A stretch of 64,000 nucleotides of DNA, taken from assembly GCA_964373795.1 (NCBI GenBank), contig CAYJVY010000006.1, forward strand, positions 28,468-92,467, read 5' to 3'. Positions within the stretch are counted from its first letter, which is position 1, and every line of letters starts with the position of its first letter. Shown in pieces: positions 25,701 through 59,655 of this stretch. The position numbers and the translations under genes are program-made. The DNA comes from an uncultured archaeon. Its GTDB lineage: Archaea > Iainarchaeota > Iainarchaeia > Iainarchaeales > DATDZZ01. The notes beneath the pieces are model-generated. The model saw only the letters and a list, made by a program, of their open reading frames with translations. It had not been told where the DNA came from and did not search any database.

Positions 25701-28700
25701 TAAAGTTAGTGAAGGTTTTTGTGCATTAGTAAAGTTTGCTCCAGATGCAATTAATATTGTTCCAGTTGGAGCAACTGAATCAACTACTACATTAATATCT
25801 GTTAAAACGCTTTGATTGTTGTCTGCAAAGTCATTTGATTTTACTGAGATTGAATAATTTCCATCTATTGGTTGAGTAAATACATTATTCCAGTTACTTG
25901 TTCCAGAAGCCAATTCAAAGTTATTACTTGAACCAAATCTAATCCAAACTTTTTGCACTCCAGTATTGTTATCTGAAGCAGTTCCAGTAACAGTTAAAGG
26001 AAAATTACTTGCCTTAAGTTCAGCTCCATTTAAAGGAGAAACAATTACTGAACTTGGATTAGTTAAATCAACATGTAATAGTTGTGGAATAGTTGTTGAA
26101 CCATTTAAATCTAAATTATCTTGAGCTTTTACTACAAGAGTATAGTCTCCTTGAGTTAAAGACGTTAAAGTATAAGTCCAATTAGTTGTCCCTGTAGCTA
26201 AGTCAAATGAATTTCCATTGTTTGTTGAAACCCAAACTTTTTGCACTCCTGATCCAGTTCCATCGCTTGCAGTTCCGGAAACAGTTAATGGAAAGGAATT
26301 ATTTCCTGCATTAAAATCACTTATTGGATTAACTAAAACAGCATTAGCTCCAGTTGAATCAAAGAAAATTGTTTCACTTGCAATTGCATTATTATCTACA
26401 AGATCTTCAAATGCAACGAAAACAGTTCTATTTCCATCTATAGTTGAACAACCAAATAATGGATCAACTATATTGAAATCAGAATGAGTTGAATTAAATG
26501 CAATGCGTGAAGTAAATGGACCGCTTGCAGAGCAACTGAATTTCATGAATTGCACTCCTGTTGTTGCATCACTTGCATTCAAAGACAAAGAAGGTTTTTG
26601 TTTATTTGTATACAAAGCATTACTTTCAATATTTACATCAGCATTAGTCGGAGAAGTTGAATCAACTCTTACATTAATTGAAGTTAAAGATAATTGATTA
26701 TTGTCAGCTGCATCTTGAGCTTTAATAATTAAATTATGATTTCCATCAGTTAAAGGATTGGAAACAATAAAATTCCAAGAAGTAGTTCCAGTTGCTAAAT
26801 TAAATGAAACTCCTTCATCTAATGAATACCAAATCTTTGAAACCCCTGAATTATTGTCAGCAGCTGTTCCGGAAACAGTTAAAGGAAAATTTCTTGCATT
26901 CAAATCAGCATTATTTAATGGACTTGAAATTATTGAAGTTGGACGAGTTTTATCTACTTGGAATACGCCTCCTAAAAATTCAACAAAATTATTATCCAAG
27001 TTATCTATTACTTTAACATATAAATCATGAGTTCCTTCACTTAAATCAAATACTAAAAAATTCCAATCATTTGCTGTAACTTGATTTCCATCAACAAAGT
27101 TTCCTGAATCTAATTTAAATTGAACTTTATTTAATCCTGATCCTGAATCACTTGAATTAATTGGATAATTAAATGGGAATGCATTCAATCCATATCCTCC
27201 TGGAGGGGTTGCGCCAACTGCATTAATTTGAGGAGCAGTTGAGTCAAAGAAAATATTTTTACTTACAGTTGAAGAAAAACCAACATAGTCAGTAAATTTT
27301 GCATAAACAGTTCTATTTCCATCAGCAGTAGTACAACCGGTTGCAGGATCTAAGATATTGAAATCCGAATGAGTAGTTGCATAAGCAACATTTGAAGAAT
27401 AATTTACATTGTTGCAAGAAAACTGCATGAAGTTAATTCCTGTAACAGAGTCTTCAGCTCTCAAACTCAAAGCAGGTTTTTGTTTTCTAGTAAAGTTTGC
27501 TCCTCCTTCAATGTTTAAATCCAAATTTGTTGGAGCAATGAAATCTAACCTGTAATTCACATCAGTTGTTATAGATTGATTATTGTCAGCGAAATCTTGA
27601 GCTTTAACTTTTAAAGTATAAAATCCTTCTTGCAATGCATCTGGATTAAAAGTATAACTCCAATTAGTTGAACCATTTGCATCTCTGAAAGTAACTCCAC
27701 TGTCAAGTGAAACAAATACTTTTTTTACTCCAACATTATTGTCAGCAGCAGTTCCACTAAAAGTAATTAAACTAAATTGATTAAAATTTGCGTCGCTTAC
27801 TGGAACAGTAACAGTACTAGTTGGAGGAGTTAAATCAACATGAACAACTGTAAAAGTATTGTCAGCTGTGTTTGCTAAATTATCTGTTAATCTAAGAATT
27901 ACTGCATGATCTCCTGCAGTAATAGAGTTGAAAATAAATGAAACAATTGGAACACTTATATTATTTGCATCAACAAAAGTTAAACCATTATCTAAACTCA
28001 ATTGAGCTCTTAAAAGACCAGATCCATTATTTGGATCACTTGCATCAAATGCAAATGTGTAAGGGAAAGAATTTACTCCAATGTTTGCGTCAACGTTTGA
28101 AGCTGAAATTCCTGCAGTAGGAGCTGTTGAATCATAAAACACTTCATCTGAAACAGCAGTTGATTCGTTTCCCACTTCATCTAAAAATTTCACGAAAACA
28201 GATTTATTTCCATCACTTGAATTACATCCAAAAGCTGAATCTAATAAATTAAAATCTGAGTAAGTTGTTGCAAAAGCAATGTTGTTTGTGTATGCAATGT
28301 CATTACAAGAAAATTTCATGAATTGAACAGATGTTGTAGCATCGCTTGCAGTTAATGCAAGTGAAGGTTTTTGATTTTTAGTGAAAGCATTTCCATCTGC
28401 TACAACAATTGATCCAGTTGGAGCAATAGTGTCAAAAACAAAGTTTACATCAGTTAAAACTAATTGATCGTTGTCAGCGAAATCTATTCCAGTTACTTTT
28501 AAATTATTTAATCCTTCAATTGGAGTCAAACTTGGAATACTCCAAGAAGTTGTTCCAGAAGCATTTTGGAATTGCGCTCCATTTAAAGAATATAAAACCT
28601 TTTTTGCCCCAGTAAACGCATCTGAAGAAGTTCCTGAAACAGTGCTTGCGAAAAAACTTGTAGAACTATATTTTGCATTATTTGTTGGAAAAGAAATTGT

Positions 28701-31700
28701 GCTTGAAGGCCTTGTTAAATCAACTGTAATTCTTCTAGAACTTGGTTGAGAGTTTTGATCTAAATTATCTGTAACCTTTGCTTGAATTTCTTTTGCTCCC
28801 TCAGTTAAAGAATTAATTACATAATTCCAATCTCCTGTTCCTGAAGCTAAATTAAATGTTAATCCATTGTTGTCTGAAACCCATACTTGTTTTACTCCAC
28901 TTCCTGCATCGCTTGCAGTTCCAGTTAAAGTAAATGGAAAGAAACTAATTCCTGCATTATAATCTTCCGGAGGGAATAAACTTATTCCAGGCAACCCTGG
29001 AGTTGAGTCAAAGAAAATTCCATCTGAAACAGCTGTAGAAATATTTCCTAAGTCATCAGTGAATTTCACGAAAACTGTTTTATTTCCATCAGAGGAAGTG
29101 CAACCAACTGTTGAATCCAATATATTAAAATCCGAATGACTTGATGCAAACGCTACATTTGAAGTAAAGCTAGTTCCATTACAGCTAAACTGCATTTGAG
29201 TAACAGTTCCAAGTGCATCACTTGAAGCAAGAGTTAATGAAGGCTTTTGAGCATTAGTGAAATTTGCTCCTCCAGAAATTGAAATTGAATTATTTGTCGG
29301 AGGAGTTGTATCTACTATGAAATTTCTGTCAACAACTATTGCATTGTTGTCAGCGAAATCTGAAGCCAAAACTCTTACATTATGGGATCCATCTGCAGGC
29401 AAAGAAATTGTTTTACTCCAAGAAGTTGTGCCAGTTACAAGAGTAAATGCTGCATTGTCAAGACTTACATATACTTCTTTTACTCCAGTGAATGCATCTG
29501 AAGTTGCACCAGTTAAAGTAAAAGGAAAATTACCTGCATTTAATTTAGTTGTTCCAGCCAAAGCCAAATTAATTGATCCAGGTTCTGGAGCAGTTGGAAG
29601 AGTTAAATCAACTTTTACTGTTAATTTTTTATTACTTAAAGGGGTTTCGACTTGCCCTAAATTGTCTGTTGCTTTTGAAACAAAAATATAAGTTCCTTCA
29701 GTTAGAGAATTAATTACTGTATTCCAATTATTTGTTCCAGTAACATTTGAAAAAGTTGCTTCATTATTTGTTGAGAGTTGAACTAACTGTACTCCGGCTC
29801 CTGCGCCATCGCTTGCAGTTCCAGAAACACTTAAAGGAAATTTGCTTGCATTCAAATTTGAATCATTTGTTAAAGAAATACTTGAAGTAGGAGAAGTTAA
29901 ATCCAAAGTAAAAGAATCGCTTACAGCTGTTGAAGAATTTTGCAATTCGTCTTCAAATATTGCGAAAATTGTTTTCAATCCATCAACTGAATTACAACCA
30001 AATTGATTTGAACTCAAATCAAGTTGACTTGAAGTTGTTGTGAATGAAAAATTTGAAGTATAAGGCCCTGTTTGAGAACAACTAAATCTCATAAATGCAA
30101 CGCTTGTAGTTGTATCGCTTGAACTCAAAGTAAGAGTAGGAGTTACGTCGTTTGAAAACCCATTTGTTTTAGAAATTGAAACTGAATTACTTGCAGGAGC
30201 AGTAGTGTCTAAGGTTAGAGTTAAATTTGTTGTAACAGTTTGTTCATTGAATGCATTATCTAATGCTTTTACAACTAAATTAATTGCTCCATCAGTAAAA
30301 GAAGAACCAAAACTAATGCTCCAATTAGATCCATTTAAAGTTGTTTCTTGAAATGTTATTCCACCATCTTTTGAAGCAAATACTTTTTTCACTCCACTCA
30401 AAGAATCGCTTGCAGTTCCTGAAACAATTAATGGAAGATTACTTGAATTAATTTTTTGCCCATTAGAATGAGAAGTAATAGTTGAAGTAGGTTTAGTTGC
30501 ATCAAAAGTAATTGCATCTGAAACACTTGAAGAAGTGTTTCCTAAATCATCTAAGAATTTTACGAAAACGTTTTTAGTTCCTTCAGTTGAATTACATCCA
30601 GTTGCTCCATTTGTTAAATTAAATTGAGAGTAAGTTGTTGCAAAGTTTACTGCAGGAGAAAAATTTGTTCCATCACAAGAAAACTGCATTTGAGTAACAG
30701 TTCCTAAAGCATCTTGAGATGCAAGAGTTAATTTTGGATTTGAAGAATTTGAAAATTGATTTCCATCCGCTATTACAATAGAATTATTTGTCGGAGGAGT
30801 AGTGTCTACTTGAATTGTTATTCCTGCAGAAGGAGTTTCAAGATTTCCAGTTCCATCAGTTGCACGAGTTTGAATTAAGTGATTTCCATTACTTAAAGCA
30901 CTTGAAGGAGTAAAACTCCAACTAGTTGTACCAGTTGCTTGAGTAAAACTTCCTCCATCAATTGAAACTTCCACTTTTGTTATTCCACTAAATAAATCTG
31001 AAGCTGTTCCAGTAAAAGTTGGACTTGTATTGCTTGTTCTTTGTCCATTTGAATGAGAAGAAATACTTGAAGTTGGAGCAGTTATATCGTAAACAATTGA
31101 ATCCAAAATTGAAGCTGAAACATTTCCAACTCCATCCTTTAATTGCAAGTAAACGTTTTTTGTTCCTTCACTTAAAGTACAACCTAGAGCAGAATCGAGT
31201 AAATTAAATCCATTAACTAAAGGAGCTAATGCAGTGAAAGTTGAAAAAGTTGAATCATTGCATGAAAATCTCATTAAAGATGTTCCAACAATATTGTCTG
31301 AAGCAGTTACAGCTAAACTCACTAATCCGTTTGCAGTAAAAGCATTTCCATTATTAATTGCAAGAGTTCCAGTTGGAGCAGTTGAATCAATTGTTACAGT
31401 TACATTTGCATCCGAAACATTTCCAGCATTATCTGTTGCATTTACGCTGTATCTAAAGCTACCATTTTTTCCTGTAATGCTGCGAGGCTCAACAATTAAA
31501 TCAGTTAAAGTTAAAGAAGAATAATTTTTTGAATTTCCTTGAGTTGTAAGTGGAGTTACATTTAGCTTTGTTTCCCCATAAGTTGTTTGATTTAATCCGC
31601 TTACATTATCAGTTAAATTAAATTTTAAAGCAAAATTTGCAGAATTATCAGGGCCATAACTTACTCCATTAACTGGTTCAGTTATTGAAATTGTTGGAGG

Positions 31701-32354
31701 AGTTACATCAAAAATAATTTGATCTGAAACAGTTAAAGGATTGTTACTTAAATCAAATCCTTTTACATAAACAGTTCTAATTCCTTCAGTTGAATTACAT
31801 CCTGCTCCTGATTCATTTGATAAATTAAATGACTTGCTTGAAGTGAATGCTTGCTGTGAAGTGAAGTTCACATTGTCACAACTGAATTGAAGAGAATTAA
31901 TATTGTTTCCATCAACTGTTAAAGTAACTTGAGCATTGTTGGAATAAGTTGCTGCATTATTAATTGAAGCACTTAAACTTCCAACCGCTGGAGGAGCAGT
32001 GTCTAAAAGAATTGCACTTGTTTGAGTTCCCAAATCAAAAGTGCTTCCGTTTGAAGCAATTCCAATTCCTGTTACTCCAACAACTTTTAATCCATCTCCA
32101 CCAATTAAATTCCATGAATGAGTATAAGTTCCAGCAGGCTTTGTAAAGCTTTGTTGCTGGCTTTGACCATCAAATACTGTGTAAACATGTGAAATTCCTC
32201 CTGAAACAGAAACAGTTACATTTATTGCAGGATTATTAGTTGTAGTTGAACCATTATTTAATGAAACACTTAAAGCAGCGAAAGCTATAGAAGAAACTAT
32301 AAGTAATCCAATTAATACGTAGAGATATCTAAAGGTTGAACTAAATGATCCCAC
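19782..32354 (-). CDS. Giant (4190 aa) secreted surface protein with about 14 tandem two-domain repeat units and C-terminal CARDB-like domains
   Basis: N-terminal signal peptide MGSFSSTFRYLYVLIGLLIVSSIAFA. There is a repeated roughly 200-aa unit. It contains M(K/R/Q)FSC(N/D)...F(A/S)...DFN(L/I/M)LD...GC(N/T)S.DGNK.V(F/Y)VKF.D and TGTASD..(S/T)GV(K/Q)KV.VS.D.G..F..A.GT..WS. The last ~500 aa show CARDB-like segments (DLRTDSLSAPGTVAINSTTVVDANISNIGNV...). Antisense ORFs inside the gene are artefacts. Confidence 0.85.
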   Translation of the reverse strand: MGSFSSTFRYLYVLIGLLIVSSIAFAALSVSLNNGSTTTNNPAINVTVSVSGGISHVYTVFDGQSQQQSFTKPAGTYTHSWNLIGGDGLKVVGVTGIGIASNGSTFDLGTQTSAILLDTAPPAVGSLSASINNAATYSNNAQVTLTVDGNNINSLQFSCDNVNFTSQQAFTSSKSFNLSNESGAGCNSTEGIRTVYVKGFDLSNNPLTVSDQIIFDVTPPTISITEPVNGVSYGPDNSANFALKFNLTDNVSGLNQTTYGETKLNVTPLTTQGNSKNYSSLTLTDLIVEPRSITGKNGSFRYSVNATDNAGNVSDANVTVTIDSTAPTGTLAINNGNAFTANGLVSLAVTASDNIVGTSLMRFSCNDSTFSTFTALAPLVNGFNLLDSALGCTLSEGTKNVYLQLKDGVGNVSASILDSIVYDITAPTSSISSHSNGQRTSNTSPTFTGTASDLFSGITKVEVSIDGGSFTQATGTTSWSFTPSSALSNGNHLIQTRATDGTGNLETPSAGITIQVDTTPPTNNSIVIADGNQFSNSSNPKLTLASQDALGTVTQMQFSCDGTNFSPAVNFATTYSQFNLTNGATGCNSTEGTKNVFVKFLDDLGNTSSSVSDAITFDATKPTSTITSHSNGQKINSSNLPLIVSGTASDSLSGVKKVFASKDGGITFQETTLNGSNWSISFGSSFTDGAINLVVKALDNAFNEQTVTTNLTLTLDTTAPASNSVSISKTNGFSNDVTPTLTLSSSDTTTSVAFMRFSCSQTGPYTSNFSFTTTSSQLDLSSNQFGCNSVDGLKTIFAIFEDELQNSSTAVSDSFTLDLTSPTSSISLTNDSNLNASKFPLSVSGTASDGAGAGVQLVQLSTNNEATFSNVTGTNNWNTVINSLTEGTYIFVSKATDNLGQVETPLSNKKLTVKVDLTLPTAPEPGSINLALAGTTKLNAGNFPFTLTGATSDAFTGVKEVYVSLDNAAFTLVTGTTSWSKTISLPADGSHNVRVLASDFADNNAIVVDRNFIVDTTPPTNNSISISGGANFTNAQKPSLTLASSDALGTVTQMQFSCNGTSFTSNVAFASSHSDFNILDSTVGCTSSDGNKTVFVKFTDDLGNISTAVSDGIFFDSTPGLPGISLFPPEDYNAGISFFPFTLTGTASDAGSGVKQVWVSDNNGLTFNLASGTGDWNYVINSLTEGAKEIQAKVTDNLDQNSQPSSRRITVDLTRPSSTISFPTNNAKYSSTSFFASTVSGTSSDAFTGAKKVLYSLNGAQFQNASGTTSWSIPSLTPIEGLNNLKVTGIDFADNDQLVLTDVNFVFDTIAPTGSIVVADGNAFTKNQKPSLALTASDATTSVQFMKFSCNDIAYTNNIAFATTYSDFNLLDSAFGCNSSDGNKSVFVKFLDEVGNESTAVSDEVFYDSTAPTAGISASNVDANIGVNSFPYTFAFDASDPNNGSGLLRAQLSLDNGLTFVDANNISVPIVSFIFNSITAGDHAVILRLTDNLANTADNTFTVVHVDLTPPTSTVTVPVSDANFNQFSLITFSGTAADNNVGVKKVFVSLDSGVTFRDANGSTNWSYTFNPDALQEGFYTLKVKAQDFADNNQSITTDVNYRLDFIAPTNLDLNIEGGANFTRKQKPALSLRAEDSVTGINFMQFSCNNVNYSSNVAYATTHSDFNILDPATGCTTADGNRTVYAKFTDYVGFSSTVSKNIFFDSTAPQINAVGATPPGGYGLNAFPFNYPINSSDSGSGLNKVQFKLDSGNFVDGNQVTANDWNFLVFDLSEGTHDLYVKVIDNLDNNFVEFLGGVFQVDKTRPTSIISSPLNNADLNARNFPLTVSGTAADNNSGVSKIWYSLDEGVSFNLATGTTSWNFIVSNPLTDGNHNLIIKAQDAADNNQLSLTSINVRVDSTSPTNADVNIESNALYTNKQKPSLSLNASDATTGVQFMKFSCSASGPFTSRIAFNSTHSDFNIVDPLFGCSTIDGNRTVFVAFEDLVDNNAIASETIFFDSTGANAVLVNPISDFNAGNNSFPLTVSGTASDGTGSGVQKVWVSTNNGNSFDLATGTTNWTYTLTSLTQGDYTLVVKAQDNLDLNGSTTIPQLLHVDLTNPSSVIVSPLNGAELKASNFPLTVTGTASDNNTGVQKVWIRFGSSNNFELASGTSNWNNVFTQPIDGNYSISVKSNDFADNNQSVLTDINVVVDSVAPTGTILIASGANFTNAQKPSLTLTALDVTTSVQFMKFSCNDIAYTSNIAFATTYSDFNLLDSAFGCTSSDGNKTVYVKFSDTAGNESNAFQDAIFFDSTAPSSVILSPADDSNFNASKFPLTVSGISADSTGSGVKKVFVSTNNGVTFAEATGTSVWSFIISDLSDGDYNVLVKGQDNLDQNEVPQRILIHVDKTIPTIAISSPSNDSNYTSSAFPLNVNGTSLDGFGTGVKQAWLSTDNGLTFTLATGTTSWSKSISLPADGLYQVKVKAQDFADNNSLTADLNFRVDNLPPTNADMNIANGVGYTNLSKPLLSLAALDAVTGVKFMRFSCDNLNYPANVAFASSHSDFNILDPVNGCIGGNGNKTVFVVFEDFTGNSSTQISKVVNYDTTPPTSNVSSPVSDFNAGNNSFPLTLSGTASDGTGSGVKTVWLSFDSGASFQDANGTTSWSFSKSSLTAGDYLVQVKAMDNLDQNQSSVSTVLLHVDLTPPNSVISNLANNARLSDANMPFTLTGTASDNNVGVKKVLVSTNGGISFTEATGTNSWSFSIPSLPDGNYSIKVKAQDFADNNQSVSTDVNFLFDSTPPINNLISIASGANFTNVQKPSLTLASTDALTNVASMQFSCDNVSFTSYVSFASSYSDFNMLDSTFGCNSVDGNKTIFARFADDLNNVSTAVSDGIFFDTTAPTGAFVSPVQDFNAGANALPLTLTGTASDAGSGVKQVFVSTNGGLTFPNLATGTTNWTRNLGSPVDGNYNIFIRVVDNLDQNSPSIGPLVLHIDTVVPSSTITSPLNGSDFNANEFPITISGTASDAFTGVRKVFLSTNGGTSFTDANGSNAWSFVISTPLTDGVHTLKSKANDFADNNQTSFTDVNIIVDSTPPIGASIVIQNGDNFSNDQKPDLTLTASDATTSVQFMKFSCNDIAYTNNIAFATTYSDFNMIDPAFGCSGLNGLTGIYVKFTDAVGNESASVLDSIFFDTTPPTSSVSSPVNDFNAGLNAFPLTVSGTSFDSGAGVKKVFISLDNGATFADANGSTNWSFSIASLTSGDYNIISKAQDNLDQNQVSLTTQLLHVDLVDPNTVITFPSGDLNAAQFPLTITGTASDVGTGLTKVFVSLDNGLTFADANDLSSWTFNVPTLVDGNYTLKAKARDYADNNDLTPASITLTVDKTPPTDTGISIANLLGFTNAQKPVLTLNASDGSGTGVAFMRFSCDNITFTSNIPFATSYSDFNMLDPAFGCTSGDGLKTVYAGFEDVIGNSSTAVSDSVSFDSTQPTALITSPVSDFNAGNNSFPLTVSGTASDGTGSGVQKVFVSTDNGTSFQDANGTTSWSFTLSALTQADYNLVVKAQDNLDLNGLNSSIITIHVDLNNPSASFTSPTNNVDLNASDFPLTLSGTAVDNETGIRKVQLNVDGNSFTDANGSTNWSFVVSNTLSDGNHLFRVKPVDFADNNQSNTTLNVRVDKTAPTGTSIVVADGNTFTKNQKPSLALTASDATTSVQFMKFSCNDIAYTSNIAFATTYSDFNIMDTAFGCNGINGLVGVYVKFVDAVGNTSSSVLDTVFFDSNAPTITNLIPGQDQNTSDQTPTISADFNDALSGVDLNSVQLFLDGNNVTANANVSANKVTFTSLSNLSVGSHDVNVFVSDKLGTQAVKSFSFNVVSIASHDLRTDSLSAPGTVAINSTTVVDANISNIGNVLESSNVRFFVNGVLQETVTLTNLAPGQIAIYSFNFTPTSEGVFELKVSVDSVTGEVNLSDNNKTKNVTVQATHDVRVDSIVYGKASTTTYLYNQDISVDANVFNAGNVSEDVNVQLKAFNPSTGTIIFDYNVVRIAAGQTLPMRFSWDANNKGSTILTVHAVPVTGETSTTDNSKDYSLTVWSVVDTINARFFNSSNYPPSSVTAGANFFTIAVFENFTQSQENFKSLPIQVDVNGVFNVVASESAGANANASLDVNKLSSEDYYWQMNMPNPGSYLVTVKAGANTLDQATVTRVVTVT

Positions 32355-47560: not shown

Positions 47561-48202
47561 CTATAAAAGTTTTTCTTTTAATTCTTGAATTGCTTTTTTT
47601 CTATCTGTTTGACCAAAAATTGCATTTCCGGCAACCAAAACATTTGCTCCTGCTTTCACTACCTTTTGCACTGTATCAAGATTAATTCCGCCATCAACTT
47701 CAATATCTAAATTTGGTTTTAATTTTCGTAGTTTAGAAATTTTTGGTAAAACTGATTCAATAAATGTTTGCCCGCCAAAACCAGGGTTAACTGTCATCAA
47801 TAAAACCATGTCTAATTCATCTAAAACATCTTCAATTGAATTCAAAGAGGTTGCAGGGTTTAATGCAACTGCAGCTTTTACTCCGCAAGACTTTATTTGC
47901 TGAATAACTCTATGCAAATGAGGACACGCTTCAACATGAACTGTAATAGAAGCTGCTCCTGCTTTAACAAATTCTTCAACAAATTTTTCGGGTTCAACAA
48001 TCATTAAATGACAATCCAATGGTTTTGAAGATTTCAATTTTTTTACTACAGGTGGCCCAATAGTAATATTTGGAACAAACCTTCCATCCATTACATCTAC
48101 ATGAATTAAATCAACTTTTGATTCAACTAAAGCAATTTCTTCATTAATTTTTCCAAAATCAGCTGATAAAATGCTTGGAGCAATTAAAACTTTTTTATTC
48201 AT
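47561..48202 (-). CDS. rpe: Ribulose-phosphate 3-epimerase
   Basis: IAPSILSADFGKINEEI...DLIHVDVMDGRFVPNITIGPPVV...HLMIVEPEKFVEEF...VDGGIN. Classic RPE motifs. Confidence 0.9.
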   Translation of the reverse strand: MNKKVLIAPSILSADFGKINEEIALVESKVDLIHVDVMDGRFVPNITIGPPVVKKLKSSKPLDCHLMIVEPEKFVEEFVKAGAASITVHVEACPHLHRVIQQIKSCGVKAAVALNPATSLNSIEDVLDELDMVLLMTVNPGFGGQTFIESVLPKISKLRKLKPNLDIEVDGGINLDTVQKVVKAGANVLVAGNAIFGQTDRKKAIQELKEKLL

Positions 48203-48783
48203 TTAAATGGTCCTCCAGGAATTAAAAAAAATATAATTAAATTTGCAATAATAATTCCAAGAATTTCAGCAACAATTAAAAGTATTATAGGCAATAAAGT
48301 TTTAAAATGAAATATAATGTTCAAAAATTCAAGCAAAACAAAATTAGCATAATACCATGAAAAATTTAAATAATATGAGAACGGAATTGGTTTTTTTGAA
48401 AACAAACTTCCAAAATATATTAAAAAAATTGAAAAAAACACTAAAGCAATTGTTAAAAAAATAACCATTAAAGAAATATAAAAAGTTAAAAACCAAATCA
48501 TTCCTAATACAAAAATTATCAAATTATTTTCAGGTTGAACATATTTGTTAAAAAAAGGAATAATTGGAAAAATAAAAATCAATGGCAAAAGGCAGGCAAT
48601 TGGAATTAAAATAATTACTCCCAGAAATGAAACTGCTCTTTCAATGTCATTTTCAGGAGTAAATCCTTTATATAAATCCAAACGAGAATTAATTGAATTA
48701 AATAAATTTTGGTCAACTGAAATCAAGTTATTTTTTAATTTAATTACAAAACTCGCATACGGTTTAAGAAAAAAATCAAACAT
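48199..48783 (-). CDS. Hypothetical polytopic membrane protein
   Basis: 194 aa, very hydrophobic. The start overlaps rpe by 4 nt. Confidence 0.4.
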   Translation of the reverse strand: MFDFFLKPYASFVIKLKNNLISVDQNLFNSINSRLDLYKGFTPENDIERAVSFLGVIILIPIACLLPLIFIFPIIPFFNKYVQPENNLIIFVLGMIWFLTFYISLMVIFLTIALVFFSIFLIYFGSLFSKKPIPFSYYLNFSWYYANFVLLEFLNIIFHFKTLLPIILLIVAEILGIIIANLIIFFLIPGGPFK

Positions 48784-48800
48784 TTTAATCAGCTATTTTC

Positions 48801-49277
48801 TCAATTTGGTTTAAGAAATTGCTTTTCTATCTCTTTAATTTTATTCAATCTACGCAAATGCCTTTCATTTTCTGGTTTGCTTCCTTCAAACTTTGTTTTT
48901 AAAAAAATTTCTACAAACTTTAATGCATCTTCTTGATTTAAAAGTTTTTCACCTAAACATAAGACATTTGTATCTCCATGTTCTCGACATTGTTTTGCAG
49001 ATGCTTCACTGAATACAACTGCTGCCCTTATGCCTGGAACCTTATTTGCTGTTAAAGCCATTCCCATTCCAGTTCCACAAACTAAAATTCCTTGAGAATT
49101 AGGATTTTTTACAACATTTTGTGCAACGCTTAAAGCAAAATCAGGGTAATCACAACTTTCTTCAGAATTAGTGCCAATGTCAGTGAATTTAAAGCCCAGT
49201 TCTTTTAATTTTTCTTTAATTGCTTTCTTTAATTTAAACCCAGCATGATCTGATCCAATAAAAATTTTCAAACACAT
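48801..49277 (-). CDS. rpiB: Ribose-5-phosphate isomerase B (RpiB/LacAB family)
   Basis: KIFIGSDHAGFKLKKAIKEKL...GILVCGTGMGMALTANKVPGIRAA is the RpiB signature. Confidence 0.85.
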   Translation of the reverse strand: MCLKIFIGSDHAGFKLKKAIKEKLKELGFKFTDIGTNSEESCDYPDFALSVAQNVVKNPNSQGILVCGTGMGMALTANKVPGIRAAVVFSEASAKQCREHGDTNVLCLGEKLLNQEDALKFVEIFLKTKFEGSKPENERHLRRLNKIKEIEKQFLKPN

Positions 49278-50359: not shown

Positions 50360-50587
50360 TTATAAGAGTTTCAGAAAATTTTCTCGTTTCATTTGCAAAT
50401 CGTGTTTTACTATTTTATTCAAAAGGCTTCTATCAATGTCTTCTCCACCATGATTTGGGATTACAGTTGTTCTACCATCTGGATGTTCAAAAAACATATG
50501 ACTTCCTTGTTGTCTTTTCAATTCAAATCCAAGTCGCTTTAGAATTTTCGCCAATTCAAGAGCATTCATTAGCGGAAGCTTTGACAT
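50360..50587 (-). CDS. hicA: HicA-family mRNA interferase toxin (YcfA-like)
   Basis: MSKLPLMNALELAKILKRLGFELKRQQGSHMFFEHPDGRTTVIPNHGGEDIDRSLLNKIVK is a canonical HicA sequence. Confidence 0.75.
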   Translation of the reverse strand: MSKLPLMNALELAKILKRLGFELKRQQGSHMFFEHPDGRTTVIPNHGGEDIDRSLLNKIVKHDLQMKRENFLKLL

Positions 50588-50588
50588 T

Positions 50589-50798
50589 TCAAACCTCTAT
50601 TTGTTGCAAACTCAAAAATTTAGTCTCAAAATTATCTAGATTTTTAACTGCAAGATAAATAGAAATTGCTTCTTTTGTTCTCTTAATTAGTTCATCATAA
50701 CTTTTTGCCTGAGTATGACAACCAGGCAAACCTATTACCTCTGAAATTAAATATCCATCTTCTCCTTGCTCAACAATTACATTAAATTTTCTTGTCAT
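50589..50798 (-). CDS. hicB: HicB-family antitoxin (UPF0150-like)
   Basis: 69 aa, MTRKFNVIVEQGEDGYLISEVIGLPGCHTQAKSYDELIKRTKEAISIYL. Its stop lies 2 nt upstream of the hicA start. Confidence 0.65.
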   Translation of the reverse strand: MTRKFNVIVEQGEDGYLISEVIGLPGCHTQAKSYDELIKRTKEAISIYLAVKNLDNFETKFLSLQQIEV

Positions 50799-50836: not shown

Positions 50837-50887
50837 TTTATTTCAACAAATTTTTAATTTGAGTTGAGAGATTTTCTGCAGTGAAAC
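50837..50887. repeat. 51-bp perfect direct repeat, copy 2 (contains the stop codon of the transketolase C-terminal subunit gene)
   Basis: Identical to 50300-50350. Confidence 0.9.
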
Positions 50888-51800
50888 CGTATTTTGTATA
50901 TAACTCTAATGGCTTGCCTGATTCTCCAAAACGATTTTGCATTCCAATTCTCTTAAAAGGAATTGAACAAGAATTTTCAGCTAATACTTCACTTACAGCT
51001 GAGCCAAGCCCGCCAATTATTTGATGATCTTCTGCAGTAATTAATGCATTTGTTTCTTTTGCTGCTTTTAAAATAATTTTTTCATCAATGGGTTTAATTG
51101 AATGAATATTTATTACTCTGCAAGAAATTTTTTCTTGTTCTAAAAGTTTTGCGGCATTTAATGCAATATAAACTAGTCCTCCAGTTGCAATAATGGTTGC
51201 ATCACTTCCTTCATGTAATTGAACTCCTTTTCCAAGTTCAAATTCATAATCTGCATTGTTTACTGTAGGAGTTTTTTCTCTGTTTGTACGCAAATAACTT
51301 GCTTCTTTAAATTCTGCTAAAAATTTTGTTGCCTCGCGAGTTTCAATTCCATCGCATGGCACTATTACATTCATGAAAGGCAGTGTTCGAAAATAAGAAA
51401 TGTCTTCCAAGCATTGCGCTGTTGCTCCATCTTGTCCTGTAAGTAATCCTGCATGCGAGCCCACAAGCTTTACTGGAACTTGTGCATAGCAAACGCTTTG
51501 TCTAATTATTTCAATTGCTCGAGTTAAAAAAATTGCAAAAGTTGAAGCAAAAACTTTTTTTCCTTCAAGAGTTAAACCAACAGACATTCCAACCATGTTT
51601 TGCTCGCAAATTCCTACATAGTGAAACCTGTTTGGATCAACTTCTTTTACAGTAATGCTTTTAGTGGATAAAGCTAAATCAGCATCTAAAGCAATAATGT
51701 TTTTGTCCTTTGCAGCTAATTCTTTTAAAGCTTCTCCATAAGCATCTCTTGTTGCAATCATTTCAATTTTTTGTTCAGTCATCTGATCAACTCTATCCAT
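50838..51800 (-). CDS. tktC: Transketolase, C-terminal subunit (pyrimidine-binding plus C-terminal domains)
   Basis: ATRDAYGEALKEL...VGICEQNMVGMSVGL...HAGLLTGQDGATAQCLEDISYFRTLP. The likely true start is MTEQ at 51782. Confidence 0.9.
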   Translation of the reverse strand: MDRVDQMTEQKIEMIATRDAYGEALKELAAKDKNIIALDADLALSTKSITVKEVDPNRFHYVGICEQNMVGMSVGLTLEGKKVFASTFAIFLTRAIEIIRQSVCYAQVPVKLVGSHAGLLTGQDGATAQCLEDISYFRTLPFMNVIVPCDGIETREATKFLAEFKEASYLRTNREKTPTVNNADYEFELGKGVQLHEGSDATIIATGGLVYIALNAAKLLEQEKISCRVINIHSIKPIDEKIILKAAKETNALITAEDHQIIGGLGSAVSEVLAENSCSIPFKRIGMQNRFGESGKPLELYTKYGFTAENLSTQIKNLLK

Positions 51801-52533
51801 GAATTACGTCAAAAAATATTAATTTGTTATCCCACTTACTAAAAAAGGCGTTCCAGGGAGCCAATGAAGTTTGAGTTCTTAACATGTTTCGCAATTGTGC
51901 AATAAATCTTTCAAGCTGAGTTCCTTTACTTTTATCCTCAAACTTTTTGCTTTGCAATAAGTCTTGAACTGTTTGAACTTCTCCAAGTTGATGTAATTCA
52001 GTAATAATTATTCCAGGCAAACCCTCTTTTCCGGAATGTCCATAATGATATTTTACTACCTCAAAAGTAATTCCAGGAAATTTTGCTTGAAGTTCTTGTT
52101 TTCGCGCTAAGAGTTCTTTTCTCAAATCCTGTGCAACTTTAATTTGATCAATGTCTCCTTGACTTGGAAGTATTTTAACAAAAAAACTTTTTCCTTCAAT
52201 CTCTAATTTGAATACTCCTCTATTTCTTCTACCTTCATATCTTGAAGTAAATGGATGAGAAAGTTTTACAGTTACAAGTGAATGAAATTCATTGTTAAGC
52301 CTTATTTCTCGAGTAACCTTTTCCCCTACTTTTAACCCGCCTTCGTGTTCTTTTATTATTTGCCATAGCTTGGGAAGAAGGCCTTTATTTCTAACTAAAA
52401 ATTCTCTGAATTCTTTTGAATAAAATGCGCGCGGACGTTGAGCAACTTTTTTTCTTATGCTAGAAGGTTTTCTAGGTAAACGCTTTTCAGCCGATTTTCT
52501 GTTTCTTTGATTTATGCGCATTAATCTCACCAA
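51793..52533 (-). CDS. Unknown protein with basic N-terminus and protein-kinase-like N-lobe, ending at an ...DVIHG motif
   Basis: 246-aa ORF lying exactly between tktN and tktC, with overlapping boundaries on both sides. Contains GVFKLEIEGKSFFVKI (beta-hairpin plus Lys, kinase N-lobe-like), IIITELHQLGE (hinge-like), and C-terminal FFDVIHG, which ends where a kinase catalytic HGD loop would begin. Confidence 0.4.
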   Translation of the reverse strand: MVRLMRINQRNRKSAEKRLPRKPSSIRKKVAQRPRAFYSKEFREFLVRNKGLLPKLWQIIKEHEGGLKVGEKVTREIRLNNEFHSLVTVKLSHPFTSRYEGRRNRGVFKLEIEGKSFFVKILPSQGDIDQIKVAQDLRKELLARKQELQAKFPGITFEVVKYHYGHSGKEGLPGIIITELHQLGEVQTVQDLLQSKKFEDKSKGTQLERFIAQLRNMLRTQTSLAPWNAFFSKWDNKLIFFDVIHG

Positions 52534-53390
52534 GTTCCGTCAACTAGTTTTTCGTTTAGTTCGCGAATAGCTTGCTCTAATTGTTCTTGAGTTGGAGCCT
52601 TGCCGTGAAAAGAAGGATTATTGTTAATAAATGAAACCCCCTTGCCTTTCACTGTATTACAAATTATTGCAAAAGGTTTGTCTGAAGAATCTGCTTCATT
52701 TAATGCTTGAATTATTTCTTCAACTTTATGGCCGTTAACTACTCTTACATTCCAATTAAAGGCTTCAAATTTTTTGTCTAAGGGATCTACGCTTAAAATT
52801 TCGTTTACAAATCCATCGTTTTGAATTCCGTTTTTATCGATTACTGCAACCAAGTTATGTAATTTTTTGAATCCAGCAAAAGCAGCTGTTTCCCATATAA
52901 TTCCTTCTTGGGTTTCTCCATCGCCTAGCCATGCAAAAACTTTGTGTTTTTTTTCATCAAGTTTTGCAGCTAAAGCCATTCCACATGCAACTGAAAATCC
53001 TTGTCCTAGGCTTCCAGAAGACATTTCAACTCCAGGGGTTTTCAATCTATCTGGATGGCCTTGAAGCATTCCTCCAAGTGCGCGGAGTTTTTCTAATTCT
53101 AAGTCAGGAATTATTTTTAATTTATTTAATGCTGCATAAACAATTGGGCAAGCATGTCCTTTACTCATTACAAATCTGTCCCGAGAAGGATCATGTAAAT
53201 CATTTAAATTGAAATGCATTTTGTAAAAATACAAAGCAGTAATTATTTCCGCGCTTGAAAGGCTTCCACCTGGATGCCCTGAATTAGCTTTAGTAATCAT
53301 TTTCAAAGCAGAAATTCTTAAGTCTCGAGCAATTTCTCTTAATTCTTGAATTTTGTCTTTTGAAAGTGTTTTCTGCATTTCCGTCGCCAC
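52527..53390 (-). CDS. tktN: Transketolase, N-terminal subunit (TPP-binding)
   Basis: ANSGHPGGSLSSAEII...SKGHACPIVYA...GSLGQGFSVACGMALA...LGDGETQEGIIWE. Confidence 0.9.
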   Translation of the reverse strand: MATEMQKTLSKDKIQELREIARDLRISALKMITKANSGHPGGSLSSAEIITALYFYKMHFNLNDLHDPSRDRFVMSKGHACPIVYAALNKLKIIPDLELEKLRALGGMLQGHPDRLKTPGVEMSSGSLGQGFSVACGMALAAKLDEKKHKVFAWLGDGETQEGIIWETAAFAGFKKLHNLVAVIDKNGIQNDGFVNEILSVDPLDKKFEAFNWNVRVVNGHKVEEIIQALNEADSSDKPFAIICNTVKGKGVSFINNNPSFHGKAPTQEQLEQAIRELNEKLVDGTW

Positions 53391-53393
53391 AAA

Positions 53394-54047
53394 TTATACT
53401 TTTAATCCAGCTTTTTTTGCATCATCTAAAAACTTTTTCAAGCCATTGTCAGTTAAAGGGTGTTGAAACATTTTTTCTAATACATTGAAAGGCATTGTAC
53501 AATACTCTGCTCCAAGCCTTGCAGATTCAACTACATGCCTTGGATGTCTAATGCTTGCAACTAAAATTTTTGTTTGAATGTAGGAATATTTTTCAAATAT
53601 TTCTTTAATCTCTTTAATTAAATTCATTCCATCTTCAGAAATATCGTCTAAGCGGCCAATGAATGGTGAAACAAATTCTGCTCCAGCTTTTGCAGCAATT
53701 AATGCTTGATTTGAAGAAAAAATTAAAGTGCAATTAATTTTAATTCCTTCAGAGGAAAGAGTTTTAATTGCTTTAACCCCTTCTGGAATAAATGGAACTT
53801 TTACTACAATGTTTTTATGCAGTGCTGCAAGAATTCTTGCTTCTTTTAAAATCTCGTTATACTCTGTTGCCAAAACCTCTGCTGAAATTGGGCCATCAAC
53901 TAGTTTAGTTATTTCTTTAACTCTTTGCTTGAAGTCAACTCCTTCTTTTGCAATTAGGGATGGATTAGTTGTAATGCCGTCACATAAACCCCATTCAACT
54001 GCTTGTTTGATTTCATTTAAATTAGCTGTGTCTAAAAAAAATTTCAT
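53394..54047 (-). CDS. tal: Transaldolase / fructose-6-phosphate aldolase family (TalC/MipB-type)
   Basis: MKFFLDTANLNEIKQAVEWGLCDGITTNPSLIAKEG...VVKVPFIPEGVKAIKTL...INCTLIFS has the Schiff-base Lys in the VKVP region. Confidence 0.85.
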   Translation of the reverse strand: MKFFLDTANLNEIKQAVEWGLCDGITTNPSLIAKEGVDFKQRVKEITKLVDGPISAEVLATEYNEILKEARILAALHKNIVVKVPFIPEGVKAIKTLSSEGIKINCTLIFSSNQALIAAKAGAEFVSPFIGRLDDISEDGMNLIKEIKEIFEKYSYIQTKILVASIRHPRHVVESARLGAEYCTMPFNVLEKMFQHPLTDNGLKKFLDDAKKAGLKV

Positions 54048-54106: not shown

Positions 54107-54397
54107 TTAAGCTACTTTTTTGGAAAATTTTTTCAAAGCCTCTATTGAAGCTCTTTTAACTGCGTCAGGCTCGTTTGCTCTAATAAGTCCTTGAAGGAAT
54201 GGAACAAAAACAGGATTTCTTGAATTGCCTGCTTGACTTACTAGTGAAACTTTTTCAGGCAGTGAACGGCTTTCACCAAATCTTTTAATTAACAGTTCAG
54301 AGTTAACAGCTGCTGTTGGTAAAACTCGTTGTTTTAAAGGAGTTCTTCTTCGCTCCAAAGAAATAATGCTTGCAGGCCTACGCGGTTTCAACATCAA
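54107..54397 (-). CDS. Small hypothetical protein with a HEAT/PBS-lyase-like repeat
   Basis: 96 aa. PDAVKRASIEALKK resembles a HEAT-like repeat. Weak call. Confidence 0.3.
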   Translation of the reverse strand: MMLKPRRPASIISLERRRTPLKQRVLPTAAVNSELLIKRFGESRSLPEKVSLVSQAGNSRNPVFVPFLQGLIRANEPDAVKRASIEALKKFSKKVA

Positions 54398-55694: not shown

Positions 55695-56267
55695 ATGAAT
55701 TTAATTTCTTTTTTTGAATTAGTTGGAAAACTAAAAGAATTCAAAAGAGCTGGCTGGATTTATAAAAAAGTTTCAAATCCTGAAAGCATTGCAGATCACA
55801 TGTACAGAGTAGCATTAATGACTTATGTTTTAGCTCCTCAATTTAAATTAAATCAAAGCAAATGCATTAAAATGGCTTTAGTTCATGATTTGTGTGAAGC
55901 AATTCATGGCGATATAGCAGACCCTCAAAATGGAGATATGTATTTTAATGGTAAAAAAATCTCACGTGAAGAAAAAAGCAAGTTAGAAGAAGACTCACTT
56001 GAACAAATAACTTCTTTTCTTAATCCAAAAATGAAAAAAGAAATAATTAAAATGTTCCTCGAAACTGAAAAAAAAGAAACTGAAGAGGGAAAATTTGTTA
56101 AACAATTAGATAGACTGGATTTGGCTTTTCAATTACTTGAATATGAATGCAAGCGTTCAACTGAAAACTTTGATGAATTCTGGGAAGACTGTGAAAGCAA
56201 AATTTATTGGCCTAAATTAAAAAAAATTTTAAATGAGTTGAAAAAGAAGCGAGTAAAGTTTTCATAA
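55695..56267 (+). CDS. HD-domain phosphohydrolase (YfbR-like 5'-deoxynucleotidase family)
   Basis: ESIADHMYRVALMTYVL...LVHDLCEAIHGDI has the H...HD...D metal-binding pattern. Confidence 0.75.
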   Translation: MNLISFFELVGKLKEFKRAGWIYKKVSNPESIADHMYRVALMTYVLAPQFKLNQSKCIKMALVHDLCEAIHGDIADPQNGDMYFNGKKISREEKSKLEEDSLEQITSFLNPKMKKEIIKMFLETEKKETEEGKFVKQLDRLDLAFQLLEYECKRSTENFDEFWEDCESKIYWPKLKKILNELKKKRVKFS

Positions 56268-56915
56268 TAGAATTGATTTTTTTCCATAAACTAGTTCATG
56301 AAGTCGTTTATATTCATCTAACTCAGGTTTACCATATCCTACTTCAAAAAAAATTTTAAACCCTAAATCCATTAAGTCTTTTAATGCTGCTTGTTTGGTT
56401 AGTTCACTTAAACCTTTTGCATCTAAAAATTGTCTTATTTTATGCGTAGAACCAAAAACATCTCCATTAATAAATAAAAACAATGCATCATGTTCTTCTC
56501 TTTCAATAGGAACATCTGTTTTTGCTTGCATCTTTTTGAACAACTCTGTTTGCCTATTCCAAACATCTGTTCTTTTATTAGGACTTAATCCTTGGAAATC
56601 CTCTGTAAATTCCCCTTTTTTAGTTATTCTTCTCTCTTTTTCAGGTAATCTTTCTTCAAGATTTAAAGTCTGACCAAAAATTTTTTCATGCAACCTAACA
56701 AAGGTTTTACGAAGCTCTTGAGCTTCAGCACTATCATGCGGAATAGATGAAATTTTTTCAATAAGGGCATCGTGTTCTCTTAACAAAACATCTCTTTCTC
56801 GTTCAGGCAAAGCACTAAAAGTATGACTATATACTATTGCCCTTGATTTAGGAGCTGTAACTATAGGTCGCTTTCCACGACGACCAGTTGTCCTTCTTTC
56901 AATCATTTTTGTCAC
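56262..56915 (-). CDS. Hypothetical protein immediately downstream of the methyltransferase on the same strand (candidate partner)
   Basis: 217 aa. Basic N-terminus (RRTTGRRGKRPIV). No recognised nuclease motif, apart from a weak D...ELDEYK pattern near the C-terminus. Confidence 0.4.
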   Translation of the reverse strand: MTKMIERRTTGRRGKRPIVTAPKSRAIVYSHTFSALPERERDVLLREHDALIEKISSIPHDSAEAQELRKTFVRLHEKIFGQTLNLEERLPEKERRITKKGEFTEDFQGLSPNKRTDVWNRQTELFKKMQAKTDVPIEREEHDALFLFINGDVFGSTHKIRQFLDAKGLSELTKQAALKDLMDLGFKIFFEVGYGKPELDEYKRLHELVYGKKSILL

Positions 56916-58359: not shown

Positions 58360-59655
58360 TCATTTCGGCTTTAAATGACCCCATTTTTCTAGTGCTTGAG
58401 CTAATTCTTTGTGTTGTTTTGCTGCTTCTTCTAAGGTTTTTCCTTCAAGAGTTGCATTTATTGCTTGCATTGAAGCCACTGCACCACTTAAAGTGCCTTT
58501 TGGATGTCCATGAATTCCTCCAGAAACAAGAATTACGCAGTCATTGCCAAAAATTTTCATTACATCTGGAACTAATCCGGGATGTAACCCTCCGGATGAA
58601 ACAGGAAAAGCAGGTTTAATGTTTTGCCAGTCTTGTTTTAAAACTCCTTCACTTTCTTTTACTTGTTTTTCACGCAAAGTATTAGCTATTTCTATAACTT
58701 CGTGCTTTGATCCAACTAGTTTTCCTACAGCTGTTCCTGCATGAATTTGGTCAACTCCAATTAAGCGATTAATTTTTGCTAAAAACTGCATTGAAATTCC
58801 GTGTTTTGGATTGCGATCAAAGGATGCATGCATTGCTCTATGAGCATGAATAGCCATTCCCATGTCTCCAAGTTCATTGCGCAAAGTTTGCACTGCAGCA
58901 GCTCCAACTACAACTACGTCAATCATTGCATATCTCCATCCATGTTCATGCAAAAATTTTGCTCGCTTAATCATTTCCTTTGTTTCAGCAGTAATATTTA
59001 GAAGCGCGTCTTTTTGTTCGCCAGTAATTTTTTCAGCTTTGTCTCTAAGCTTTGTCATTAATTTCACGCGTTCAAAAAAATTATTAAATGAAGTAGAGGA
59101 AAGATTTTCATCGTCTTTCACTAAATCAAATCCTCCCATCCAGGTTTGAAAACCAATTTCTGCATGTTCTTTTGCAGAAAAACCAATTTTTGGTTTTGGA
59201 ACAGCTCCTGTTAGAGGACGTTTTTGAACTTTGAATAATTTTCTTAGTCCTTGAATTCCTTGTCTAGGACCTTTAAAAGAATTCACATATTCTTTTGGAA
59301 AACATGCATCAATTAATTTCAAATTTTTCAATGCTTTCATTCCAAAAATATTGCCTGCAATTCCTGAAAGCATTTGAGGCATGTTTCCTTTTTCCCATAA
59401 ACCAAGTGGATAAGCAATTTTCACTAAATTTCCGCGAACTTCAAAAGCAGTTGCCATTAAGCCTTTCATTCTAGGAGGCAATTTGAATAAAGTAGTCCAA
59501 GTTCCAGTTGAACTCTCTGAAGCAATTCTTCCAATTGCTTCATTTCTGGAAATTCCTGCAGCTGGTTCAAAATAATATAAAACAATTACATCGCTTTTAG
59601 TTGGAGAGTAATGCAAGTTAATGAATTCATCATACCAATCAATTTTTTTAGTCAT
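58360..59655 (-). CDS. rbcL: Ribulose-1,5-bisphosphate carboxylase/oxygenase, form III (archaeal type, large subunit only)
   Basis: MTKKIDWYDEFINL...GTWTTLF...GGFDLVKDDENL (GGxDxxKDDE active-site motif) ...VSGGLHPGLV. Length 431 aa. No small-subunit gene nearby. Confidence 0.9.
   Translation of the reverse strand: MTKKIDWYDEFINLHYSPTKSDVIVLYYFEPAAGISRNEAIGRIASESSTGTWTTLFKLPPRMKGLMATAFEVRGNLVKIAYPLGLWEKGNMPQMLSGIAGNIFGMKALKNLKLIDACFPKEYVNSFKGPRQGIQGLRKLFKVQKRPLTGAVPKPKIGFSAKEHAEIGFQTWMGGFDLVKDDENLSSTSFNNFFERVKLMTKLRDKAEKITGEQKDALLNITAETKEMIKRAKFLHEHGWRYAMIDVVVVGAAAVQTLRNELGDMGMAIHAHRAMHASFDRNPKHGISMQFLAKINRLIGVDQIHAGTAVGKLVGSKHEVIEIANTLREKQVKESEGVLKQDWQNIKPAFPVSSGGLHPGLVPDVMKIFGNDCVILVSGGIHGHPKGTLSGAVASMQAINATLEGKTLEEAAKQHKELAQALEKWGHLKPK

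Follow-up and report, generated by a model that had tools for sequence, protein, structure and literature searches.

A gene between the two halves of a split transketolase in an Iainarchaeota archaeon represents an undescribed family with a predicted minimal protein-kinase-like fold

A 246-amino-acid (aa) open reading frame (ORF), here called gene X, lies between the two halves of a split transketolase (tktN and tktC) in a 64,000-nucleotide (nt) stretch of DNA from an uncultured archaeon of the Iainarchaeota (contig CAYJVY010000006.1 of assembly GCA_964373795.1). This whole stretch is referred to below as the window. We found that X is an intact gene with about 30 full-length homologues of 209-266 aa, which align with one another end to end. 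Structural modelling suggests that the product is a minimal protein of the protein-kinase-like (PKL) superfamily, a membership argued for by its predicted fold and the geometry of its motifs. On balance, we consider it probable that X is a full-length gene belonging with the tal-tktN-(X)-tktC string and that it encodes a minimal PKL protein, either an ATP-binding kinase or a pseudokinase, of ribose-phosphate/nucleotide carbon metabolism.

An exhaustive HMMER scan of 1.84 billion representatives returned 11 relatives of X, ten of which (220-243 aa) were end-to-end matches and one of which was a 128-aa fragment. Adding profile searches and scanning GTDB genomes and JGI metagenomes brought the family to about 30 sequences, most pairs of which are at most 40% identical. 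A profile search extended to an E-value of 10 recovered X-family members only, all at E <= 3e-40. X alone matched only itself in a word-indexed protein search, the single protein gave no match in the GTDB genome scan, and the metagenome scan returned no further members of its own subclade. The named records come from 'Candidatus Iainarchaeum archaeon' metagenome-assembled genomes (MAGs), one 'Candidatus Diapherotrites archaeon' and one 'uncultured archaeon', and so far the family has been found only in Diapherotrites/Iainarchaeota-type (DPANN) archaea. One member is carried by a 5.9-kb contig labelled as a Chloroflexota bacterium (DAOWAC010000069.1, locus L016); because an archaeal Cdc6/Orc1 gene accompanies the DPANN-specific X-family gene, this contig is probably archaeal and misbinned.

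The family has no domain annotation in any library searched. Searches of Pfam, NCBIfam, PADLOC, PHROGs and PDB sequences with the X protein and the family profile gave nothing significant. Sub-threshold profile matches to L28 (E 0.0045) and YfiA (E 0.03-0.1) are not significant and were rejected as compositional. Two other ORFs of the window (48199..48783 and 56262..56915), each considered as an X paralogue or as a missing C-lobe, were unrelated. A literature search, limited in the range that was searchable, found no paper describing the family. Taken with the structural model presented below, X appears to represent a PKL family that has not been described before, occurs in a narrow range of taxa and is unusually minimal in its architecture.

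The earlier note on this DNA, made from the sequence alone, had raised the possibility that X is a decayed gene remnant, to which an open non-coding spacer may be added. X does change rapidly: compared with its nearest relative, P0002, the non-synonymous divergence (dN) is 0.54 and the synonymous divergence (dS) is saturated, whereas the adjacent tktN in the same comparison has a dN of 0.11 and a dS of 2.8, and one lineage carries an in-frame stop. Such an account is nevertheless effectively refuted, as length is kept and four residues are invariant across the roughly 30 divergent homologues, the frame is intact, identity by codon position (0.58/0.65/0.48) follows the pattern of coding sequence, every member ends at the same structural point, and the model built from the family alignment is confident. 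X goes well beyond an ORF that is open by chance. These substitution patterns place X under purifying selection, with non-synonymous change about five times as fast as in tktN.

The AlphaFold2 model of X made with the family multiple sequence alignment (MSA), which contained only 20 sequences, had a predicted local distance difference test score (pLDDT) of 87.3 and a predicted template modelling score (pTM) of 0.79, and all five models scored 85-87. From the single sequence, the model reached a pLDDT of 63 and its Foldseek matches were meaningless. When the MSA-based model was searched against the PDB with Foldseek, the top 50 matches were all kinase-fold structures, with probabilities mostly of 0.9-0.99, E-values of 6e-4 to 9e-3 and TM-scores of 0.24-0.39. 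The model displays the elements of the bilobal kinase fold, namely an N-lobe beta-sheet with the alphaC helix, a hinge, the alphaE helix, a catalytic loop and a beta-hairpin. The predicted PKL fold class is therefore well supported, and X is about equally distant from all described PKL families.

At the sequence level, no significant similarity to a described kinase family was detected with Pfam, NCBIfam, PDB sequences, profiles or hhalign. An hhalign comparison of the family profile with PKA C-alpha and APH(3')-IIa produced no alignment. Against E. coli WaaP, GKSFFVK of X paired with GKSYFLK (E 0.019 over 29 columns), and against E. coli WaaY the hinge, N228 and D242 paired with IIEY, GDPHRGN and IIDL (E 0.16); neither result is significant alone. 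The kinase N-lobe and hinge proposed in the earlier note agree with the modelled secondary structure and with these weak pairings, GKSFFVK being the predicted beta3-lysine strand and IIITE the predicted hinge. It had likened the fold to that of RIO/Bud32/Kdo kinases; X has no RIO/Bud32 match in Pfam or NCBIfam and no Kdo/WaaP match in Pfam, and lacks the conserved catalytic Asp of the Kdo/WaaP family. The profile and structure-prediction searches that it had recommended matched no known family and predicted a kinase-like fold.

As shown in Table 1, X begins with a disordered basic tail (about 35 aa), which leads through a two-helix extension into a minimal PKL domain; the basic N-terminus, GVFKLEIEGKSFFVKI, IIITELHQLGE and the C-terminal end FFDVIHG can be read along its sequence. 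F42 in the YSPEFKxF extension is invariant, as are K120, N228 and D242 among the full-length members, where H163 is at least nearly so. Asn228 and Asp242 are present in 30/30 family sequences, always at a spacing of 14. In PKA, Asn171 and Asp184 are 13 residues apart, and the spacing in the X family appears to be the canonical geometry of a catalytic-loop Asn and a DFG-type Asp. On the model, Lys120 (invariance read from the 20-sequence alignment), Asn228 and Asp242 would be equivalent to the nucleotide- and metal-binding residues of kinases and would hold ATP-Mg as they do in other PKL proteins.

In all 30 sequences the protein ends 1-19 residues past the equivalent of D242, indicating that the length of X is native. 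The earlier note had regarded X as truncated at the point where an HGD loop would start, but N228 and D242 lie upstream of the terminal VIHG. The C-lobe helices that follow the DFG motif (activation segment, alphaF onward) are not present in the family. Nor can a C-lobe continue downstream in another frame, a check that had been proposed, because tktC begins immediately and the downstream DNA is tktC.

The catalytic-base position is occupied by D/E in 22/30 members (21 from the motif tally plus P0022, read by eye), suggesting that the ancestral activity of the family would have been phosphotransfer. X has Ser at this position, where P0002 and P0004, the relatives closest to it, carry His and Ile, respectively. 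In the alphaC column, D/E is found in 11/18 members, whereas X has Arg138 and P0002 also has Arg. With Ser223 in place of the HRD-equivalent Asp, X has lost at least one canonical catalytic residue, as pseudokinases do by definition. The pseudokinase-like character suggested for X earlier is accordingly upheld in part for its subclade, for a reason other than truncation. The tkt-linked subclade seems to have kept the nucleotide and metal ligands and lost the usual base. Because of the Ser at the base position and the Arg at the usual acidic position of alphaC, X in the window would most likely be a kinase that is weak or atypical, or else a pseudokinase-like protein that binds ATP and partners the transketolase module.

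Table 1. Coordinates of X, its predicted elements and the adjoining genes (window positions; residues in the numbering of the TTG start)
Feature	Position	Strand	Remarks
Transaldolase gene (tal), first of the tal-tktN-X-tktC string	53394..54047	minus	3-nt gap to tktN
tktN, N-terminal (thiamine pyrophosphate (TPP)-binding) half of the split transketolase	52527..53390	minus	Pfam Transketolase_N, E 2.7e-53
Gene X, 246-aa ORF from TTG	51793..52533	minus	Open reading frame list
Alternative starts of X	GTG 52530; ATG 52521		245 aa; 242 aa
GGTGA, Shine-Dalgarno-like motif	52527..52531	minus	Made by the final codons of tktN (TGG TGA), 5 nt before the ATG; kept in L011
Probable true ATG start (residue 5)	52519..52521	minus	Read from the sequence
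Disordered, strongly basic tail, residues 1-35	52429..52533	minus	14 K/R, 1 D/E, net +13; pLDDT 39-52
Conserved N-terminal extension (short strand + two helices), residues 36-62	52348..52428	minus	Motif (A)YS(P/K)EF(K/R)xF
Predicted kinase N-lobe, residues 72-179	51997..52320	minus	Beta strands, TGSYxGxxN loop, FFVK, alphaC, beta4/beta5 with H163
TGSYxGxxN loop	Residues 93-105		Glycine-loop position; G101 nearly invariant
Strand ending FFVK	Residues 115-122		K120 invariant
Lys120 (AAA) of FFVK	52174..52176	minus	Invariant; putative ATP-binding beta3 lysine
Long helix	Residues 129-151		AlphaC position
Two strands	Residues 156-166		H163 near-invariant
Strand + hinge	Residues 174-188		IIITE; family consensus LVTDF
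End of beta5 + hinge, IIITELHQLGEV	51976..52011	minus	Residues 175-186; consensus LVTDFYxxGEV
AlphaE helix + catalytic loop	51850..51942	minus	Residues 198-228; helix 198-218
Ser223, canonical catalytic-Asp position	51865..51867	minus	Five residues before Asn228
Asn228, putative catalytic-loop (Mg-binding) asparagine	51850..51852	minus	Invariant; aligns weakly with N of WaaY GDPHRGN
Beta-hairpin	Residues 229-240		Strands 229-232 and 237-240, between N228 and D242
Asp242 in FFD, putative DFG-type metal-binding Asp	51808..51810	minus	X ends 4 residues later
tktC, C-terminal (pyrimidine-binding + C domain) half	50838..51800	minus	Transket_pyr + Transketolase_C

The sequence quoted in the earlier note is present exactly, on the same strand as tktN and tktC. 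X was not unannotated as stated there, since an identical 245-aa product (P0001) is already recorded in NCBI and Logan, from the GTG one codon after the TTG. If the mechanical TTG start is taken, the reported overlaps of 7 nt with tktN and 8 nt with tktC hold. Judging from its context, however, the ATG at 52521 is the likelier start, because a GGTGA lies 5 nt upstream and the same GGTGA-N4-ATG layout is found in the homologous locus L011, where the equivalent ATG lies 4 nt past the tktN stop. The GGTGA would be the ribosome-binding site, and with this start X and tktN do not overlap. The start of tktC could equally be its second ATG (51782). The window transketolase is encoded as separate tktN and tktC with a full domain complement, and the absence of intergenic space makes co-transcription of X with tkt plausible, as had been supposed. 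A sigma-70 promoter/terminator scan gave nothing above shuffled sequences, the sigma-70 model being uninformative for an archaeon. GC content around the locus is about 30-35% with no compositional break at X, and the composition profile shows no foreign-DNA signature; an archaeal signal recognition particle (SRP) RNA is present in the window.

The tktN-X-tktC order, which the earlier note had proposed looking for in related archaea, recurs in GCA_030650135.1 (L011), where tktN (34-888) is followed by X (893-1624), a spacer of about 37 nt and MSSQEQKTEQSGQVVEMVAT, the N-terminus of tktC. Between the two genomes TktN is 85% identical and X 41%, indicating that the synteny is kept between fairly close relatives. 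P0003, the third member of this subclade, has no contig on record. Elsewhere in the family, where most neighbourhoods were taken from short MAG or metagenome contigs, an IF-2B-family gene lies directly upstream of X and carA or ATCase/OTCase downstream in three loci (two lineages). An archaeal (d)CMP kinase gene, scoring above the NCBIfam cut-off, is directly upstream in two divergent lineages, and one of these loci is divergently adjacent to type III RuBisCO. One locus has the order Archease, X, RpiB, and a xylose-isomerase-like TIM barrel is adjacent to X in three loci (about two lineages). RtcB/Archease is nearby in two loci, and the remaining ones contain Cdc6, RPA/PcrB, TFIIB, CutA1 or unknown small genes. 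The full-length IF-2B gene of L005 scored best as ribose-1,5-bisphosphate (R15P) isomerase (226 bits), below the equivalog cut-off and above the eIF-2B_rel subfamily cut-off.

X is thus directly beside tkt, RpiB, an R15P-isomerase-like gene or CMP kinase in 7 of about 13 lineages, defined as clusters at <= 45% identity, with neighbours counted by hand. The binomial probability of this count is roughly 1e-6, an assumption-laden estimate in which such genes make up 2-3% of a DPANN genome, giving a chance of about 5% per two neighbours. In the window itself, tal, tktN, tktC, rpiB, rpe and type III RuBisCO lie within 12 kb. The RuBisCO gene (58360-59655, minus strand; TIGR03326, 569 bits against a cut-off of 497) is 5 kb from the tal-tkt string, and rpiB and rpe (47561-49277, minus strand) are on the other side of it. 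Neither an AMP phosphorylase nor an R15P isomerase turned up in the scanned window ORFs, mainly those at 32-63 kb, the first 17 kb being outside the annotation. Because X occurs repeatedly beside these genes, its substrate or partner would most likely belong to the pentose-phosphate/nucleotide-salvage/type III RuBisCO network, with a ribose-derived metabolite as the candidate substrate.

Carried to a defined reaction, this becomes a proposal that we consider unlikely: the family would phosphorylate a ribose derivative, either ribose 5-phosphate (R5P) or ribose-1-phosphate to ribose-1,5-bisphosphate, or a nucleoside, feeding R15P isomerase/RuBisCO, and the tkt-embedded subclade would be a degenerate ATP-sensing partner. 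X would then link the non-oxidative pentose-phosphate pathway to type III RuBisCO in Diapherotrites, and its family would be the smallest PKL fold yet seen, ending at the DFG aspartate. In methionine salvage, the PKL-fold ribose-1-kinase MtnK works with the IF-2B-family isomerase MtnA and a RuBisCO-family enzyme, which offers an attractive analogy for the combination of X, an IF-2B gene and RuBisCO. The two systems differ in several respects. Methionine salvage uses a RuBisCO-like protein (RLP), whereas the RuBisCOs near X are bona fide type III enzymes and not RLPs; the IF-2B neighbour that was tested has R15P isomerase, not MtnA, as its best score; and X is about 180 residues shorter than the 5-methylthioribose (MTR) kinase matched by its fold (246 vs 411 aa) and has no substrate-binding C-lobe.

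Several observations weigh against the main reading of X, and above all against a simple metabolic kinase. A soluble sugar kinase would not usually have a polybasic tail of 35 aa and an isoelectric point (pI) of 10.4; X has no substrate-binding C-lobe, and in the window it has, judged from its alignment, no catalytic base. With 41% identity against 85% for TktN, X is under much looser constraint. Unrelated neighbours (RtcB/Archease, Cdc6, TFIIB, PcrB, CutA1) are seen in about half of the lineages. The sequence-level links to kinases given by hhalign are non-significant, and the mapping of residues to functions is drawn from fold class, secondary-structure order and motif spacing. Owing to the basic tail, the pI, the absent lobe, the mixed contexts and the fast evolution, two rival explanations, one RNA-directed and one membrane-associated, stay live.

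The strongly basic N-terminus described in the earlier note is indeed present in X, and every member of the family has a disordered basic tail (27-43 aa, net charge +5 to +13) and a whole-protein pI of 9.7-10.4. Of the 47 window ORFs with 120 aa or more, only one is more basic than X (pI 10.36; 9.7 for the core alone), whereas the pI is 5.7 for TktC, 6.8 for TktN and 7.7 for Tal. These properties would suit an RNA- or ribosome-directed atypical kinase or ATPase acting in the manner of RIO/Bud32, in which the tail docks on RNA or a ribonucleoprotein, binding or hydrolysis of ATP serves as a switch, and metabolic genes lie next to X only incidentally because DPANN genomes are compact. Since Bud32 and RIO work mainly as ATPases, the lack of a catalytic base would be tolerable. 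Archease or RtcB stands beside X in three loci, with TFIIB, EF-1alpha/S10 or LSM nearby in others; however, informational genes dominate DPANN genomes, so that such neighbours are expected by chance and pentose/nucleotide neighbours are not. X also resembles RIO/Bud32 no better than it does sugar or antibiotic kinases, matches neither in Pfam or NCBIfam, and the weak L28 and YfiA matches (E 0.005-0.1) lend no significant support. We consider this explanation possible but rather doubtful. RIO/Bud32 proteins are moreover universal, whereas X is taxonomically narrow, lacks an HGD and has no helix beyond the DFG-type Asp.

The only sequence-level hints point elsewhere, to WaaP and WaaY, small single-domain PKL kinases that act on sugars of the lipopolysaccharide core and belong to the WaaP/WaaY/Kdo kinase group (PF06293 lineage; 265 and 232 aa in E. 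coli). The WaaP beta3 motif resembles that of X, and the hinge, the catalytic Asn and the metal-binding Asp occur in the same order. X is archaeal and adds the polybasic tail and the YSPEFKxF extension; WaaY keeps an Asp at the catalytic base and continues for about 50 residues past the metal-binding Asp, whereas X has Ser and continues for 4. A membrane-peripheral kinase for a lipid-linked sugar or a lipid, comparable to WaaP/WaaY/Kdo kinase or UbiB and anchored to acidic lipids through its tail, would also be in keeping with the PcrB/GGGP-synthase-like neighbour in L015 and with the Alg14/Alg13-like glycosyltransferase pair about 1.5 kb downstream of X in the window. The hhalign scores are not significant, however, PcrB is the one lipid-related neighbour among about 13 lineages, and no transmembrane or amphipathic element was identified in X, making a membrane-peripheral role improbable. 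UbiB/ABC1/ADCK3 proteins, of at least 400 aa and with a full C-lobe, are unlike X; one X-family member had a non-significant ABC1 match (E 0.12).

The position of X between the tkt halves in two genomes, inside the operon of a TPP-dependent enzyme, together with its predicted PKL/APH-type fold, brings to mind a thiamine or thiamine-phosphate kinase serving the transketolase cofactor, analogous to the APH-fold enzyme ThiK. E. coli ThiK, a thiamine kinase, belongs to the PKL/APH fold class. This is very improbable, for X's subclade is the only tkt-linked one and has no catalytic base, and the other members of the family adjoin enzymes that do not use TPP. Small PKL domains are also found among the secreted bacterial virulence kinases OspG/NleH and HopBF1, which phosphorylate, or are activated by, host proteins. 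X is archaeal and has no sequence similarity to them, and its domain ends earlier, right after the DFG-type Asp, than those of OspG (169-residue chain) and HopBF1 (176-residue chain), the latter having been described as a 'minimal' effector kinase (PMC9950578).

Some lineages of the family showed further peculiarities. In the P0020 lineage, the gene is split by a single in-frame TAA in L006 and L007 (6001-6741; contig Ga0172369_10000015 and others), two identical loci from separate samples; P0020 is recorded on 7 contigs. The TAA stands directly after the hinge (...VLISDFYYVG* VCPVSK MEPQ...), and the 66-aa ORF downstream of it still contains E-x4-N...LFD. This arrangement could be a nonsense pseudogene, a two-piece gene made of an N-lobe and a C-part, or a case of stop-codon readthrough. 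Two tandem copies of the family gene are present in one lineage (L021, Ga0213870_1040753, at 2-370 and 595-1278), where the residue at the catalytic-base position differs among copies (G, N, Y or D). The xylose-isomerase-like PF01261 gene beside X is at 5146-5883 in L016, 531-1361 in L026 and 1301-2137 in L008; the L016 copy scored only 50 bits to deoxyribonuclease IV (cut-off 130), so that a sugar isomerase or epimerase is a possible alternative to Endo IV for its product. A literature search for a split-tkt precedent in M. jannaschii (MJ0679-0681) found no paper, and that precedent was not used as evidence.

The window contains several other genes of note. An unknown 194-aa ORF (48199-48783, minus strand) lies between rpiB (48801-49277) and rpe (47561-48202) with a 4-nt overlap with rpe; it matched nothing in Pfam, NCBIfam or PDB and has no relationship to X. 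Two more ORFs of the pentose/RuBisCO neighbourhood, at 54107-54397 (minus strand; 96 aa, basic N-terminus) and 56262-56915 (minus strand; 217 aa), had no Pfam match, and the latter had no NCBIfam match either. A toxin-antitoxin pair made up of HicA (E 6e-19) and a HicB-like protein (E 1.6e-4, below the Pfam cut-off) lies at 50360-50798 (minus strand), immediately downstream of tktC and on its strand. A 4190-aa ORF at 19782-32354 (minus strand) consists mostly of bacterial Ig-like repeats (Big_7 x11, Big_13 x9, CARDB) and is followed by a 762-aa CARDB protein at 17430-19718. Both are probably surface or adhesion proteins, and proteins of a comparable kind have been described for DPANN archaea (PMC5905446).

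If the model of X is right, a PKL domain needs nothing beyond the metal-binding Asp to be viable, which would set a new lower size limit for the fold. The functions of the C-lobe would then be supplied in another way, for example by the N-terminal extension, a partner protein or dimerisation. The family is an orphan to annotation libraries, and X of the window is its founding member as described here. A lifestyle based largely on nucleotide salvage via RuBisCO has been proposed for Diapherotrites (PMC5905446, PMC6389311). Given its recurrent neighbours, the X family is a concrete candidate for an unassigned step or a regulator in the ribose-phosphate/RuBisCO network of DPANN archaea.

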